Below the pieces are notes generated by a model that ran no database searches, was not told the origin of the DNA, and saw only the letters and a list, made by a program, of their open reading frames with translations. A program made the translations under genes and the position numbers. Below, piece by piece: positions 26,358-57,463 of a stretch of DNA of 64,000 bases; position 1 is the stretch's first letter, and each line of letters opens with the position of its first letter. Location: NCBI GenBank assembly GCA_965198235.1, contig OZ240248.1, forward strand, positions 3,936,001-4,000,000, read 5' to 3'. The DNA comes from Candidatus Poribacteria bacterium (GTDB taxonomy: Bacteria > Poribacteria > WGA-4E > WGA-3G).

Positions 26358-28308
26358 ACGTGGCGTGACCTTTCGTGCCGTGCTGATAGGTGTGGTGTTT
26401 ATTCCACTTAACGCCTATCTCGTTGTGCAGTTGGAAACGGTGTGGGGCATTGGCGATCCCACAACAATGACGATATTTTTCAATGCTATCTTCTGCTTCT
26501 TTCTCGTCATTGTCCTGAATCTCATACTCGCACGATGGATACCAAAAAATGCTTTAAATCAAGGTGAATTGCTGACGATTTACAGCATTTTGATGGTGTC
26601 TGTATCGGTGAGTGGGCAAGATTTCGCGCATACCATTTTTGGCACCTTGGGCAACGCCCGATGGTTCGCTACACCTGAAAACGAATGGACGACCTTGTTC
26701 CTAAGCTACCTTCCGCAGTGGCTTGAGCCTTCCGAAAAAGCATTGGAAGGCTATTTTTCGGGCGAATCTTCATTCTATGTATCAAGGAACATCAAAGGGT
26801 GGATTCAACCGTTAGTGTGGTGGACCCTTTTCCTGACGGTCCTGTGTTTTGTGATGATTTGTATCAACAGTATCATCCGCCGGCAGTGGATAGAGCAGGA
26901 AAGATTGACATACCCATTAATCTATTTACCCTTTGAAATGACGCAGGAGTCCTTTTTCAAAAATCGGCTCTTATGGCTCGGCTTCGGAATCGCTGGAGCG
27001 ATTAATCTTCTCAACGGTCTGAACGCACTCTTCCCCGTCCTCCCTAAAATTCCACTCTCCTATAATCTCGCAACACATTTCATAGAACGCCCTTGGAATA
27101 GCATTCAAGGCTGGCCCGGTATGCCTATTCAAGCGAACCCTTTTATCATCGGGCTTACCTTTCTAATTCCTCTTGGTTTGCTCTTTTCCTGCTGGTTTTT
27201 CTATTTTATATGGAAGTTACAGTACATCGTTGGGAGTATGGTGGGTGTTAACGTTCCACACTATCCGTTTGCAAATCAGCAGGTGTTAGGCGGGTATTTA
27301 GGCATCGTTGTTGTAACGCTGTGGGTCGCGAGAAAACATCTATGGCGGGTGCTGAAAGGGGCAGTGAATCCAGAATCAGTTCCTGATGATACCACCGAAC
27401 CGATGCGATATCGGACAGCAGTTTGGGGAACACTGTTAGGAATTGCCTTCTTAATCGGTTTCTGTTATCAAGCCGGAATGTCCTTGAGTTTTGCCTTCGC
27501 ATTCTTTGGCATTTACTACCTCATCCTGTTCGGGTTTACGCGGATGCGGGCTGAACTTGGTCCGCTTATGCACGGCATCCATTACTTCGGTCCTTTCCAA
27601 CTCATTGTTGCGGCAATTGGAAGCCATCGTATTTCCCCACAAACGCTAACCGTTGCGGCACCGCATTGGACACACACGAAAGAATTCCTGAACAAACCGA
27701 TGCCTGCCTATCTGGAGAGTTTCAAATTGGCGGAGCGAGCGAACGTTACCGCGGGCAGCGTTGCCATAGACACTCGAAAACTCTGGAGAGTGTGCCTGTT
27801 GGCAACATTTCTGTCTATTGCTGTAACACTCTGGGCATTCCTTGAACTCGGCTATAAATGGGGCGGACCCGGGGCATGGCGGGGTAATCTCGCCTACAAT
27901 GCTATAGCGCGAGTGTTGAAACAACCGACAGATCCAGATTTCGCGCAGCTCGGCGCGACAGGCTTGGGTATGGTCTTCGTCCTTGTCGGGACTGCCCTAC
28001 GCTTAAGATTTCTTTGGTGGTCCCTTTATCCACTTGCTTATCCACTCGCGGGCTATTACTATTTCAACTACCTCTGGTTTCCATTTCTTGTCTGCTGGTT
28101 GGTAAAGTGGGTAATCCTGAAATACGGCGGTATTCGCGGATATCGTAGAGCGGTTCCACTGTTTCTCGGATTGGTTCTCGGAGACTTCATCTTAGGATGT
28201 ATATGGACGATCCTTGGCTTACTGACAGGCGAAGTGACGTATATGTTCCAAGAATTGGTGTTTTGCCCAGATGTTCCCAACACGTCAACAGTGCCTTTCA
28301 TATCGTGA
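26347..28308 (+). CDS. Large polytopic membrane protein (DUF6785/DUF6784-like, putative transporter)
   Basis: GVTFRAVLIG, LNQGELLTIY, FATPENEW, RRQWIEQERLTYP, RMRAELG, YGGIRGYRRAVPLFLGLVLGD. Confidence 0.75.
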   Translation: MTPKRGVTFRAVLIGVVFIPLNAYLVVQLETVWGIGDPTTMTIFFNAIFCFFLVIVLNLILARWIPKNALNQGELLTIYSILMVSVSVSGQDFAHTIFGTLGNARWFATPENEWTTLFLSYLPQWLEPSEKALEGYFSGESSFYVSRNIKGWIQPLVWWTLFLTVLCFVMICINSIIRRQWIEQERLTYPLIYLPFEMTQESFFKNRLLWLGFGIAGAINLLNGLNALFPVLPKIPLSYNLATHFIERPWNSIQGWPGMPIQANPFIIGLTFLIPLGLLFSCWFFYFIWKLQYIVGSMVGVNVPHYPFANQQVLGGYLGIVVVTLWVARKHLWRVLKGAVNPESVPDDTTEPMRYRTAVWGTLLGIAFLIGFCYQAGMSLSFAFAFFGIYYLILFGFTRMRAELGPLMHGIHYFGPFQLIVAAIGSHRISPQTLTVAAPHWTHTKEFLNKPMPAYLESFKLAERANVTAGSVAIDTRKLWRVCLLATFLSIAVTLWAFLELGYKWGGPGAWRGNLAYNAIARVLKQPTDPDFAQLGATGLGMVFVLVGTALRLRFLWWSLYPLAYPLAGYYYFNYLWFPFLVCWLVKWVILKYGGIRGYRRAVPLFLGLVLGDFILGCIWTILGLLTGEVTYMFQELVFCPDVPNTSTVPFIS

Positions 28309-38249: not shown

Positions 38250-39503
38250 TCACTCTGTTCGCAACGCCTCAATTGGCGAGATGTGTGAGGCTCTCACGGC
38301 GGGATAGAGTCCGAAGACGATACCAATGCAGGCTGAAATGCTAACAGAAACTGCCATCCATTGTGGTGAGATCACGACAGGCCACTGCGGAATCACTTTG
38401 ACGATTTTGACGGCGATGTGTGAACAGGCATAGCCGGTGCCTATACCGAGACCGAGACCGAGTAAGCCGCCGATGCCGCACATCACGATCGCTTCAATCA
38501 GAAACTGCAAGAAAATGTCTTGCCGTTTCGCCCCAATAGCTCGACGGATGCCAATCTCACGGGTGCGTTGGTTCACGGAAACGAGCATCATGTTCATAAT
38601 GCCAACGCTCCCGACAAACAGCGAAAACGCGGCAATGCTACTAAGCATAATTTTGATAATGCGACTGATTTTATCAAGTTCCTTGACAGCTGCAGTCGCA
38701 AAGCTAATATCAAAAAAATTGTCTTGGTTCCGATGTCTTTTTCTTAAAACAGTTCTGACTTCCTCAGCGGCTTTCTCAATAGCATCGGCATCGACCGCTC
38801 TGACATTGAGATAATTGACGTGGCGTTTGCCTTTGAATCTATCTTGTGCCGTGGTTAGAGGTATGAACACGATGTCGTCCCAACTGAATCCGTATTGAAG
38901 GCTTGTCCCGCGTTCAGCCATAACGCCGAGGATGCGAAATCGGTCAGGTCTTCCGCCTTGAAGCGAAAGTTTGATTTCTTTGCCAACCGGATTCTGGTTT
39001 CCGAACAGTTCTATTGCGACTTCTCTACCGAGTACGCAGACTTTTCTACGGTTGCTGAATTCATCTTCGGAGAAGAAACGTCCCTGCTGAATCTGCCACT
39101 TCATTCCGGTCGGGAAATGCGAATTAACGCCATTGTATTCCGTCCATTTTGTTGCGCCACTTTCAGCTTGCGCGAGCACTTCATTAGAAATACTCGGAAT
39201 TACACATTCAACAGAAGGGCATTCGGCTTCAATGGCTAAAACATCTGCGTACCTTAAGTGTTCACCGCTACGGTTTGGAAATACGCGGTCGCCGCGCCAG
39301 ATCCACGGATTCCGACGGACGAAAAAATGACCACCAAACTTTTCAAACTCTTGCATGACGATACGCTTCGCGCCATCGCCGATAGCGAGCATTGCGAGGA
39401 CGGCAGCGACACCGATAATGATACCCAGCATTGTGAGTGCCGAACGCATTTTTTCCTGCAAGATGGCAGTGAATCCTGTTGAAAATCCCTCGTATAGTTT
39501 CAA
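38250..39503 (-). CDS. MacB/FtsX-type ABC transporter permease
   Basis: RSALTMLGIIIGVAAV, GIMNMMLVSVNQRTREIGIRRAIGA, GLYPA..PIEALR; TTG start after GGAG. The longer ORF extension runs into the MITE. Confidence 0.9.
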   Translation of the reverse strand: MKLYEGFSTGFTAILQEKMRSALTMLGIIIGVAAVLAMLAIGDGAKRIVMQEFEKFGGHFFVRRNPWIWRGDRVFPNRSGEHLRYADVLAIEAECPSVECVIPSISNEVLAQAESGATKWTEYNGVNSHFPTGMKWQIQQGRFFSEDEFSNRRKVCVLGREVAIELFGNQNPVGKEIKLSLQGGRPDRFRILGVMAERGTSLQYGFSWDDIVFIPLTTAQDRFKGKRHVNYLNVRAVDADAIEKAAEEVRTVLRKRHRNQDNFFDISFATAAVKELDKISRIIKIMLSSIAAFSLFVGSVGIMNMMLVSVNQRTREIGIRRAIGAKRQDIFLQFLIEAIVMCGIGGLLGLGLGIGTGYACSHIAVKIVKVIPQWPVVISPQWMAVSVSISACIGIVFGLYPAVRASHISPIEALRTE

Positions 39504-39534
39504 TTCTCCACTCCTCATCACAATGCACGTTAAA

Positions 39535-39766
39535 TAGGACTTACGCGCTTCCTCTTGAAGTCCCCCTGATAAGGGGCGGGGAATGCCATACGGGGAATGC
39601 CATACGGCATTCATACCGTTGATTCGCATTCATACCCGGGGAAGCCCACATGGGCTTCATACCGTTGATTCTGATTCTTTAGGGGGTTAAATAACTGAAA
39701 TACTCTCACTGCGAGGCATTTTTGGGTGAAATCTATTGCTTCTTTACGCAATTTGCGTAAGTCCTG
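39535..39766. mobile_element. MITE with 12-bp TIRs and 5-bp TTAAA target duplication
   Basis: TAGGACTTACGC (39535-39546) / GCGTAAGTCCTG (39755-39766); TTAAA at 39530-39534 and 39767-39771. Confidence 0.75.
39577..39677. repeat. Three nested copies of a 35-bp hairpin unit (CGGGGAA...TTCATACCGTTGATTC)
   Basis: Full copies at 39591-39625 and 39637-39671; outer copy split into 39577-39590, 39626-39636 and 39672-39677. Confidence 0.85.
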
Positions 39767-39868
39767 TTAAACTTAAAATATCAAATTCGATGAATACATG
39801 CAAGTTGTTTTACTAATAAATTTGCTTTCAAGCTTTTCAGCGATAGTTTGATTTGGAACGGCACGTTT

Positions 39869-41695
39869 TCAAACATACCATTGTGCTTGTGCTTTAAAGA
39901 ACTGGGCATAAAGTCCATCTTTTGCCAATAAGGTTTCATGGTCACCGTCTTCAACGACTGCGCCGTTATCAAGGACGAGAATCCGGTCACAGGTTCGGAC
40001 AGAGGAGAGACGGTGTGAAATTAGCACGGATGTACGTCCGACACTCCGCTCAATAAATCGCTCATAGACCGCTTGTTCGGCTAAGGGGTCTAAGGCAGCA
40101 GTCGGTTCGTCAAGCACGACCAGCCAGGGGGCCTCGCGCATGAAACTCCGGGCAGTTGCGAGACGTTGCCATTCGCCACCGGAGAGATCGCGTCCGCCGA
40201 AGGTGGGACCGAGGATTGTCTCGTACCCCTCTGTGAGTCCGTCAACGACCGAGGCGGCACCACCGGCGATAGAGGCTTCTTCCATACGATCGGGGTGCTC
40301 AAGGTCGCCGAAGATAACGTTCTCACGTGCGGTAAGGTGATACTGCGTGAAGTCTTGGAAGACCGCGCTGCAACGCATCAACCACGCTCGACGGTTTTCA
40401 TCTGTGAGTGGGACATCTCCTATATGGATTATCCCCGTTTGTGGACGGTAGAGCCCTAAAAGTAGACGCGCCAGAGTGGTTTTCCCTGCGCCATTGGGCC
40501 CAACAATTGCAACCCGCTCCCCTTTTCTCAACGTCAGCGTTATGTTATTTAACGTGGGTTCTTGCGTATTTGGGTAGAAAAACGATATATTTTCTATCGC
40601 AATGTCTTGAATTGTGTTATTTCCATCTAATTCATCTGTTTTCCGATAGTGTTTCTCTACTGTGGCTGCATCGCGCCCTAAAAACTGATACAAATCTCCG
40701 GACAAACGGTGCATCTGACTGGCTATCAACTGAAAATATCCCGCCACTTCATTCCAGATGCCGTCCAGTTGGACGAGTGCGGCGGCAGCGGCGATATACG
40801 TGCCGACGGTGAGTCCACCTTGAAAGACCTCAAGTAATAGAAGAATGAGCGAACCGGCGTATAATAATCCACGGACGATGTCAATTGCAAGATGTGCGAA
40901 GAATTTACGGCGTTCAATCCTTTGTTGTCCGTGTATGAGTGTCTGCGATAACTGTTTCCAGCGGTTTATCCATAAGTCCTGAGTTTGGTATAATCGAACT
41001 TCCTTGCCCGTGCCACGATCCGTCAGTATTCCTTCTAATGCATCTCGCTCTCGGCGTTCGGATGTCTGCTCGACATCAAAGTTGTAACTATCTACAGCGA
41101 AACGCGAATCGCTCCACCAAGAGATCATGCCAGTGAATGCGGGCAGCAAAACCAATAATGGATGATAACGCCATAACACGACACCGAGGGTTACAACGCT
41201 GATGAATTGTTGAAGGCTATCAATAAGCCACCAGAGGATATTCTCAAGGTCTAATCCGGAAATCGAACGCGCTCGTTCAAGGGCATTTTGATATTCAGGG
41301 GTCTGGAATTCGATGAGTTCTGTGGTATCAGCTTTTTTAAGGATGCATTCATTCAGCCAGACTTCAATGTTTTCTCTGACACGGATATGGAGCGGTTGGC
41401 TTAACTGATTGGCAAGGGTGATAAAAATGCGTAAGCCAAGCAGCCCTATCAACCACGGAACGACTTGCTGCCACCAGTTCGTATCACCTACAGCATCAGT
41501 GATGGCATTGACGAGGTGTTCGGTTACAAAGAACTCACCGGCGGGGACAATACCGAGCGATAGCGTGAGTAGCATCATCCCCAAAAGCGCGAGTGAACCG
41601 CTTTGCCAAACGACTGCGAAAGTTCGGAGGTAGGCGAATAAAGTTTCTTTGGCAGCTGAAATCCATGTTTTCAATTTTCCTTTAGCATTTGACAT
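39869..41695 (-). CDS. ABC exporter, fused TMD + NBD
   Basis: GPNGAGKT, LSGGEWQ, LDEPT, ISHR; N-terminal multi-TM domain; KEVRLY. Confidence 0.9.
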   Translation of the reverse strand: MSNAKGKLKTWISAAKETLFAYLRTFAVVWQSGSLALLGMMLLTLSLGIVPAGEFFVTEHLVNAITDAVGDTNWWQQVVPWLIGLLGLRIFITLANQLSQPLHIRVRENIEVWLNECILKKADTTELIEFQTPEYQNALERARSISGLDLENILWWLIDSLQQFISVVTLGVVLWRYHPLLVLLPAFTGMISWWSDSRFAVDSYNFDVEQTSERRERDALEGILTDRGTGKEVRLYQTQDLWINRWKQLSQTLIHGQQRIERRKFFAHLAIDIVRGLLYAGSLILLLLEVFQGGLTVGTYIAAAAALVQLDGIWNEVAGYFQLIASQMHRLSGDLYQFLGRDAATVEKHYRKTDELDGNNTIQDIAIENISFFYPNTQEPTLNNITLTLRKGERVAIVGPNGAGKTTLARLLLGLYRPQTGIIHIGDVPLTDENRRAWLMRCSAVFQDFTQYHLTARENVIFGDLEHPDRMEEASIAGGAASVVDGLTEGYETILGPTFGGRDLSGGEWQRLATARSFMREAPWLVVLDEPTAALDPLAEQAVYERFIERSVGRTSVLISHRLSSVRTCDRILVLDNGAVVEDGDHETLLAKDGLYAQFFKAQAQWYV

Positions 41696-57432: not shown

Positions 57433-57463
57433 CCCCCCTGATAAGGGGGGTTAGGGGGGTTAA
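57433..57463. repeat. CCCCCCTGATAAGGGGGG-TTAGGGGGG palindromic repeat (uninterrupted relative of the one inside the MITE at 39562)
   Basis: Direct comparison with 39562-39576 + 39678-39690. Confidence 0.7.

Follow-up and report, generated by a model that had tools for sequence, protein, structure and literature searches.

A 101-nucleotide (nt) composite at positions 39577-39677 of the window, i.e., the 64,000-nt stretch of contig OZ240248.1 (Candidatus Poribacteria bacterium, assembly GCA_965198235.1) analysed here, is a single 35-nt hairpin unit interrupted twice by two complete units of the same kind, with 2 nt absent per junction. The unit probably belongs to a new, Poribacteria-specific family of very small hairpin elements mobilised in trans and resembling the repetitive extragenic palindromes (REPs) and the small dispersed repeats (SDRs). 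Judging from the sequences compared, the novelty would lie in a very small hairpin family in a new phylum, in its unusually clean junction rule, and in the targeting of hairpin loops and feet, including its own. A literature search returned no report of such small repeats in Poribacteria. From left to right, the nest is composed as follows:

39577..39590, plus strand: outer unit, 5' piece CGGGGAATGCCATA, cut in the apical loop (sequence reading)
39591..39625, plus strand: inner unit 1, complete, CGGGGAATGCCATACGGCATTCATACCGTTGATTC; covariance model 62 bits, DNA hairpin -7 kcal/mol, z = -3.3
39626..39636, plus strand: outer unit, middle piece GCATTCATACC, with CG absent before it and GT absent after it
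39637..39671, plus strand: inner unit 2, complete, a compensatory stem variant, CGGGGAAGCCCACATGGGCTTCATACCGTTGATTC; covariance model 57.8 bits, -6.9 kcal/mol
39672..39677, plus strand: outer unit, 3' piece TGATTC (sequence reading)

The three outer pieces sum to 31 nt, and adding CG and GT back rebuilds the 35-nt unit, so the parsing proposed in an earlier, sequence-only reading of this DNA (two units inside a third) matches letter for letter. The same reading had noticed invariant ends and compensatory stem differences between the full copies (GAATGCC/GGCATTC vs. GAAGCCC/GGGCTTC); both are confirmed, and the covariation extends across 56 distinct units. As single-stranded DNA, a single unit forms a 7-bp hairpin of -7 kcal/mol (z about -3), and in the composite fold inner unit 1 remains enclosed by the paired arms of the outer unit. 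Chance does not account for the repeats: the window contains two occurrences of the 15-mer tail, with 0.24 expected. Beyond the two inner units, a covariance model built from relatives, as that reading had suggested, finds no match above 17 bits in the 64 kb; a weak one at 27011-27037 on the minus strand (CGGGGAAGAGTGCGTTCAGACCGTTGAGAAG, 12 bits, E about 0.015), devoid of a hairpin, is probably due to chance. The nest is a genuine sequence and not an assembly artefact, since it is present at four loci of the source genome and its architecture recurs in the assemblies of other species; a break after nt 14, like that of the outer 5' piece, is also present in other genomes.

The general anatomy of the unit is 5'-CGG(G/T)-GAA, four variable stem bases, a loop of 4-6 nt, the complementary arm, and TTC-AT-ACCG-TTGATT(C/T)-3', i.e., about 28 nt forming a bulged hairpin and then an invariant tail of 7-8 nt. 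Loop variation brings the length to 35-39 nt. The pattern used to collect the units fixed both ends only and did not require complementarity of the arms. Among the 56 distinct 35-nt units, 21 columns are invariant (CGG.GAA and TTCATACCGTTGATT), and the four inner stem pairs carry 42 double-sided changes vs. 7.9 +/- 2.2 in shuffles, none of the 500 shuffles reaching 42; sliding the stem partners abolishes the pairing. The hairpin structure of the unit is selected. Together, the invariant ends and the covarying stem support the notion of a minimal, non-autonomous, structure-defined repeat. In certain variant units, (A)GAA(A)CCT takes the place of the 3' stem arm, and the hairpin is thereby broken (C1:2081026-2081171 and loci L026, L029, L031, L041, L045, L057, L197, and L204); in one nest, both inner units carry this arm, resulting in a length of 107 nt. 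A sister family, CGGTTCATGCC...GAACCTGAATACC (L034, L082, L198), has a 3' arm that matches the swapped one, so the variants look like chimeras.

The search of this and related genomes proposed earlier revealed the unit both genome-wide and clade-wide. The 5.17-Mb source genome harbors 16 exact 15-nt tails, vs. none for the reversed control; 15 of them belong to units at 11 loci, comprising four identical or near-identical nests and seven single units. Full units were found in 97 of the 176 genomes of the phylum, at 0 to 362 copies per genome. Their distribution by genus is narrow: 55 of 64 genomes in g1, 40 of 40 in g13, one match in g6, and zero in the remaining 28 genera. The g6 match (G105:C13:7959-7993), the only full unit outside g1 and g13, may represent a transfer, a bin contamination, or a relic. 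A scan of public genomes returned at least 119 stretches, and all 80 titles among the matches listed were those of Candidatus Poribacteria metagenome-assembled genomes. Overall, the family amounts to thousands of copies in sponge-symbiont Poribacteria.

The junction rule was derived from the comparison of filled and empty sites. Of the 162 unit sites at all loci retrieved, 68 had an empty relative, and grouping of these gave 38 target families. The empty relatives are paralogous repeats, and sites lacking one allow no verdict. For the units with a C tail (ending in ...GTTGATTC), exactly 2 nt (GA, AA, AG, or GT) are replaced in 13 of 19 families. A fourteenth family, with CG of the unit's own loop as the target, is ambiguous as the unit also starts with CG, and the other five comprise inexact paralogues. 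For the T-tailed units (...GTTGATTT plus G or C), parsimony gives no replaced nucleotide in seven families (all at C-G and ambiguous), one in six, and other values in six. The proposed replacement of two target nucleotides is thus borne out at the two internal sites of the nest as well as at the host site and in the C-tail families mentioned above, and the filled-vs.-empty alignment supports it to this extent, albeit with paralogous sites and a differing T-tail class. A fixed net gain of 33 nt, also proposed, does not hold, given the range of unit lengths and the T-tailed units, which replace 0-1 nt by parsimony. None of the 38 target families with an empty relative displays a target duplication, and the unit has no terminal inverted repeats (TIRs), both as noted in the sequence-only reading.

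The insertion points are hairpin loops or hairpin feet. With the insertion points set off by hyphens, the targets include apical loops of GTAG-type REPs (e.g., GCACTCC-AG-CGGAGTGC and GGGAACTC-C-GATTCCC), the 5' foot directly after GTAGG (GTAGG-AG-CGATC), the centre of another small palindromic repeat (CTCGCCC-AA-ATGCGA), and the host site CCCCCTGATAAGGGGG/TTTAGGGGG. The unit itself is targeted in its loop (CCATA-CG-GCATTC, between nt 14 and 17) and at its 3' foot (ATACC-GT-TGATTC, between nt 27 and 30). Repetition of the 3'-foot insertion leads to stacked left halves followed by equal-looking runs of TGATTC, as in the Russian-doll array L071. The architecture of 14-15 nt, unit, GCATTCATACC, unit, TGATTC was encountered in at least nine other species with the subunits typical of each genome; in the nest of G044, all three subunits are alike. 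Species-specific subunits within a shared architecture therefore suggest recurrent self-insertion at two fixed internal points, and self-nesting, initially noticed at one locus, recurs across loci and species.

A three-level nest of different families was also observed. At loci L224-L239 of G018, a TIR-bearing carrier (ATGGTAAAC...GTTTACCAT) holds a GTAG-type REP (GGTAGGCGAGG...CCTCGCC), the loop of which holds a small repeat (TTTTGTGGCGTACTCGAC...ATGCGATGTGCATTC) with the unit at its centre. Another repeat, ending in ...AAATTACC(C/G)AATT(T/A)ATT(T/C)TTAATCTTCAT (L147, L067, L163, L076, and C1 near 3853400), is frequently joined to a long palindrome, GAGGTTAGGAAACCTCGCCAGCAG...CTGCTGGCGAGGTTTCCTAACCTC; at two loci its immediate neighbour is the right half of a unit, as if it had inserted into the unit loop.

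The nest of the window resides in a carrier resembling a MITE (a miniature transposable element with inverted repeats). The features of the host site and its surroundings are as follows:

39536..39765, plus strand: MITE-like carrier of 230 bp including the nest (131 bp when the nest is subtracted), belonging to a set of 31 such elements in the genome; TIRs AGGACTTACGC at 39536-39546 and GCGTAAGTCCT at 39755-39765
39562..39576, plus strand: left half of the host target, CCCCCTGATAAGGGG, palindromic, with TGATAA as the loop and the last G lost; its empty counterpart is CCCCCTGATAAGGGGGATTTAGGGGG
39678..39690, plus strand: right half of the host target, TTTAGGGGGTTAA
57433..57463, plus strand: uninterrupted variant of the host palindrome, CCCCCCTGATAAGGGGGGTTAGGGGGGTTAAT, outside any MITE and one of the 44 empty CCCTGATAAGGG sites
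38253..39437, minus strand: downstream neighbour, MacB-like/FtsX permease (MacB_PCD 1.6e-47, FtsX 3.6e-20)
39872..41695, minus strand: upstream neighbour, ABC transporter ATPase fusion (ABC_tran 1.1e-27)

The carrier occupies the spacer between the two minus-strand genes, the nest lying about 140 nt upstream of the start of the MacB-like permease. The true empty form of the host site is GGGG-GA-TTTAGGGGG, found, e.g., in the MITE at C1:3024706, and in the filled sites GA is replaced to give GGGG-(35 nt)-TTTAGGGGG. The host palindrome is therefore 2 nt short, as the sequence-only reading held, GA being the dinucleotide lost; the palindrome at 57433-57463, taken there for the intact relative, is a 6C/6G variant. 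In the genome, 44 of the 54 CCCTGATAAGGG sites are empty. The underlying motif, in which CCCCC(C)TGATAAGGGGG(G) precedes (A)TT(T)AGGGGG(G)TT, is a dispersed repeat itself: of its 54 sites in C1, including 57433-57463, only 31 are located in MITEs and about 23 outside, and its TGATAA loop holds two stop codons. The ten filled CCCTGATAAGGG sites and the eleventh unit locus (3.02 Mb) all fall within 2.05-4.55 Mb of C1, and the empty ones are spread over the chromosome with 25 of 44 in that span (Fisher p about 0.01, the span having been chosen post hoc).

The history of the carriers can be followed in more detail. The MITE family (94-131 bp, TIRs as above) includes several subfamilies differing in the internal right half, and 8 of the 31 carriers in the genome are filled. 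The core of the carrier in the window is 99.2% identical to the empty copy at C1:3024706 (one base differs in about 130). Four copies of a short subfamily have 100% identical cores and inserts of 0, 35, 101, and 107 nt. The same 101-nt nest is found in three MITE subfamilies, the nearest relatives of which are empty. Homologous conversion of the nest between the subfamilies would need very short arms, since the bases that distinguish the subfamilies start 19 nt from its left edge and 16 nt from its right edge. The sequences thus indicate more than one event of movement or formation of the nest. The carrier is lacking from the orthologous spacers of other species, and contigs of the runs X23 and X24 join 39528 to 39766, which corresponds to an allele without the carrier.

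Overall, these findings make it rather likely that the unit is a REP-like miniature hairpin of Poribacteria which is placed as DNA with fixed ends, with the removal of two target nucleotides, by a function provided in trans. The unit codes for nothing and would move, or would have moved in the past, as DNA. A complete unit would be placed with its ends fixed and without duplication, 2 nt of the target (0-1 nt for the T-tailed units) being removed, at the transitions between single- and double-stranded DNA of other hairpins, i.e., at apical loops and stem feet. The events would hence be insertions and not excisions, presumably via a single-stranded intermediate. Repeated self-insertion at the two internal points would give rise to the 101-nt three-unit composite. 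Since the latter keeps the ends and the stem of the outer unit, it could then be placed as one piece into the internal site of the MITE, whose transposition would carry the composite along. The catalyst would act in trans and would cut the target twice, 2 nt apart; our best guess is an enzyme cutting and rejoining folded single-stranded DNA, e.g., of the HUH/Y1 type or another hairpin-specific nuclease.

Several observations weigh against this scenario. The T-tailed units lack a clean 2-nt rule, and the empty sites are paralogous repeats rather than orthologous alleles; no filled/empty polymorphism within a species was seen in the read contigs, which are fragmentary, or in the metagenome scan, which was empty. 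All 11 unit loci of the source genome use one target type, therefore little or no current activity in this genome would fit. In G018, 14 of the 20 copies sampled occupy one site type, and 12 of these are within two larger carriers, which points to hitch-hiking. The orientation biases described below, and that of 39:15 relative to the flanking genes, follow no consistent replichore rule and so lend no support to lagging-strand targeting.

The search for a mobilising gene adds to these objections. The sequence-only reading anticipated long elements with the same ends around an HUH, recombinase, or reverse transcriptase gene; none surfaced, nor were unit halves separated by kilobases found in 119 loci. 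Clustering of the 551 open reading frames within 1 kb of the units gave no enriched transposase family, only cadherin-like, oxidoreductase, and other ordinary families. The source genome (G000) encodes six Y1 (HUH) genes, namely three IS200/IS605 copies and three IS200-like genes with REP arrays of their own, and none of the six is bounded by units. In five high-copy genomes, units were near 2 of 22 Y1 matches, both inserted in those genes' own REPs. Each of three Y1 families occurs in 10-12 of the 31 genera, including unit-free ones (g5, g6, and g3 for two of the families), and the families were not found in several high-copy genomes (no match in G055 for one family, in G021 and G017 for another). 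A REP-associated tyrosine transposase (RAYT) or an IS200 transposase was rejected as the partner on these grounds: the Y1 genes are not bounded by units, and the three families do not track the distribution of the unit.

Some features of these Y1 loci deserve description. The IS200-like genes of the source genome (C1:606918-607262, 1898775-1899119, and 3853757-3854101; 159-171 aa) are accompanied by REP arrays (GCACTCCAGCGGAGTGCTATGTCTATAG and GCACCCCGTAGGGGTGCTATGTCTATAG), one of them also by four tandem repeats of ~105 nt upstream, and the loci are REPtron-like. A remnant of a GTAG-type RAYT is located at C1:615847-616113 (72% identical over residues 1-89, with a TAA stop); intact copies flanked by GTAGG... 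REPs exist in other genomes of the genus. The left end of an IS200/IS605 element, about 130 nt upstream of tnpA (119838-120191), contains ...CTAATACGTTGATTG..., which resembles the unit tail ATACCGTTGATT; this likeness may be due to chance or to a -35-like box.

The HUH-type cut-and-join reaction on folded single strands is the nearest known chemistry because RAYTs cut folded REP DNA; no such gene is tied to the unit by the present data. A less favored option, somewhat unlikely in our view, is an enzyme of an undescribed, non-HUH/Y1 kind that would recognize folded DNA, excise 2 nt at a loop or foot, and ligate the 35-nt hairpin. If this were true, it would represent a "replace-two-bases" integration and the smallest mobile DNA that targets itself and obeys a defined junction rule, and it would explain the spread of REP- and SDR-like repeats in genomes without a matching RAYT.

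The alternative that survives best denies the unit any mobility of its own: it would have arisen a few times and spread passively with MITEs and other carriers as well as by gene conversion between carrier copies. Much of the copy number outside the source genome indeed represents passive hitch-hiking on larger repeats; thus, the 12 G018 copies within the two TIR-bearing carriers belong to an identical unit variant, and the strong strand bias in this genome is probably the carrier's own. The single target site shared by the 11 source-genome loci, eight of them in MITEs, and the lack of a partner enzyme among the genes searched also speak for passive spread. Nevertheless, this explanation appears unlikely in view of the 38 distinct target families, for which empty relatives were matched and in which the unit ends are fixed, of the insertions into unrelated REP loops and feet and into the unit itself, and of the nests recurring with species-specific subunits; moreover, a conversion carrying the nest from one MITE subfamily to another would require crossovers to fall inside shared flanks of 19 nt and 15 nt.

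Another possibility dispenses with a dedicated enzyme and invokes template switching or repair synthesis at stalled replication forks, guided by microhomology. Hairpins stall replication forks, and the targets of the unit are hairpins. Some of them resemble the joined ends of the unit (GGGGA-TT, CG-GCATTC, CCGT-TGATTC), and the chimeric units with the foreign 3' arm (the GAACC variant) would be in line with this mechanism. However, template switching usually yields variable junctions, unlike the fixed ones documented here; the unit ends are invariant over dozens of unrelated targets, many of which lack microhomology (e.g., GCACTCC-AG-CGGAG and CTCGCCC-AA-ATGCGA), so this mechanism seems improbable.

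About equally improbable is that the unit is a motif useful to the host and kept by selection, e.g., a protein-binding site or an RNA stem affecting mRNA fate, its spread being secondary. The stem covaries and the ends are invariant over two genera, and between co-directional genes the unit is co-oriented with them in 39 vs. 15 cases. The 138-nt stretch including the nest is 98% identical between species, where the flanking genes are 82-86% identical. On the other hand, selection for mobility accounts for the same conservation, the copy number varies from 0 to 362 among close relatives, and the units sit inside other selfish repeats and inside each other. A terminator or promoter role at the locus was rejected, as simple scans gave no terminator-like or promoter-like site overlapping the nest. 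A search of Rfam with 39300-40000 (E up to 1) gave no matches.

Finally, an assembly or adapter artefact, in favor of which no point was found, is practically out of the question: besides the four loci and the recurrence of the architecture in many species' assemblies from different projects, short-read contigs of independent runs span the junctions (e.g., record 11 of X22, covering 39610-39688). The Logan contigs of the runs X20, X22, X23, and X24 are too short over the repeats to bridge the locus and decide nothing on the nest there; strain variants of the locus gave no matches in the JGI metagenomes.

The orientation of the units was also considered. The copies in G018 and G016 are strongly biased toward one strand (50:8 and 15:0, respectively). 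In G018, 47 of 51 copies are on the plus strand from dnaA (0.56 Mb) to 3.2 Mb, a suggestive pattern; in G016, all are on the plus strand on either side of dnaA, and in G007 and G138 the strands are mixed. In C1, dnaA is located at 1.0 Mb, and the cumulative GC skew is irregular. A lagging-strand (replichore) rule was thus rejected: there is no consistent switch at dnaA, and the G018 copies are mostly in one carrier. The biases of G018 and G016 probably reflect the carriers, since the G018 copies sit mostly in larger ones.

A coding function was suggested by the stop-free frames, four of six in the single unit as claimed and two of six in the whole nest, together with the idea that the unit adds 11 codons to proteins in the manner of the Rickettsia palindromic elements (RPEs). 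The idea found no support: a stop-free span reaching at least 50 codons to either side surrounds just 1 of 175 units, the other 174 being outside long open frames, and in-frame coding use of the unit was rejected on this count. RPEs are described as often lying in frame within genes (PMC3733652). The unit shares with them the small palindromic form without coding capacity and differs in the rarity of in-frame insertion.

By analogy, the behaviour of the unit appears closest to that of REPs and of the cyanobacterial SDRs. Like REPs and their inverted pairs (REPINs), it is an imperfect extragenic palindrome of 20-40 nt with a high copy number, the stem being adjoined by an invariant single-stranded tag; neither REPs nor the unit code for anything, and for both, mobilisation in trans on single-stranded DNA is presumed. 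The covarying stem, the 174 of 175 units outside long frames, and the copy number of up to 362 place the unit among the short, extragenic, high-copy palindromes. It differs from REPs in its tag, which is a 3' TTGATT(C/T) instead of GTAG or CGTC, in flanking none of the Y1 genes examined (the six of G000 and the 22 of the five high-copy genomes) as REPs flank RAYTs, in failing to co-occur with RAYTs across the genomes of the phylum, and in being single or nested in direct orientation, whereas REPINs are inverted pairs. GTAG-type REPs serve here as targets of the unit. RAYTs are described as cutting REP hairpins 5' or 3' at a dinucleotide chosen via the GTAG tag (PMC8266576), and REPs located inside other palindromes are on record (PMC3733652).

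The likeness to SDRs concerns, in the first place, nesting in itself, common to both. The SDRs of the Nostoc group were reportedly described by Elhai et al. in 2008 as hairpin repeats of 21-27 nt with compensatory mutations, nested in other repeats and in themselves, the presumed mobilising factor being encoded elsewhere. They belong to Cyanobacteria and not to Poribacteria, the unit is longer (35-39 nt), and the sequences are unrelated. To our knowledge, a fixed 2-nt replacement and the targeting of loops and feet have not been reported for SDRs. A HIP1 context was rejected, as the HIP1 word GCGATCGC is not over-represented in the source genome (137 occurrences vs. 125 for a control word).

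Other known systems are more distant. IS200/IS605 elements have a hairpin at each end. With them and with the palindrome-associated transposable elements (PATEs), the unit shares hairpin-defined ends and the lack of TIRs and target site duplications (TSDs), and the single-strand chemistry of HUH Y1 enzymes would suit folded targets. The unit differs in having one hairpin, variable left flanks, and a loss of 1-2 nt, and the distribution of tnpA does not follow it; IS200/IS605 elements are described as inserting, with no nucleotides lost, 3' of a fixed target of 4-5 nt (PMC8266576). The MITEs of the DDE type, recognized by TIRs and TSDs, resemble only the carrier (131 bp without the nest, 230 bp with it), which is multicopy and bounded by TIRs; both TIRs and TSDs are absent from the 35-nt unit. 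In the integron attC site, paired inverse core sites RYYYAAC ... GTTRRRY bound an imperfect palindrome, whereas the unit possesses a single GTTGATT-like core at its 3' end and no inverse 5' partner.

How REPs, SDRs, and other palindromic repeats of very small size spread has yet to be settled, and the family described here, with its thousands of copies in about 100 related genomes and its dozens of target classes for which empty sites are matched, lends itself to addressing this. Its sharp junction signature limits the chemistries to be considered and is open to tests using oligonucleotides and candidate enzymes. Nests of this kind are real sequences, not to be mistaken for assembly errors, and such repeat-in-repeat-in-repeat structures shape the intergenic DNA of dominant, uncultivated sponge symbionts.

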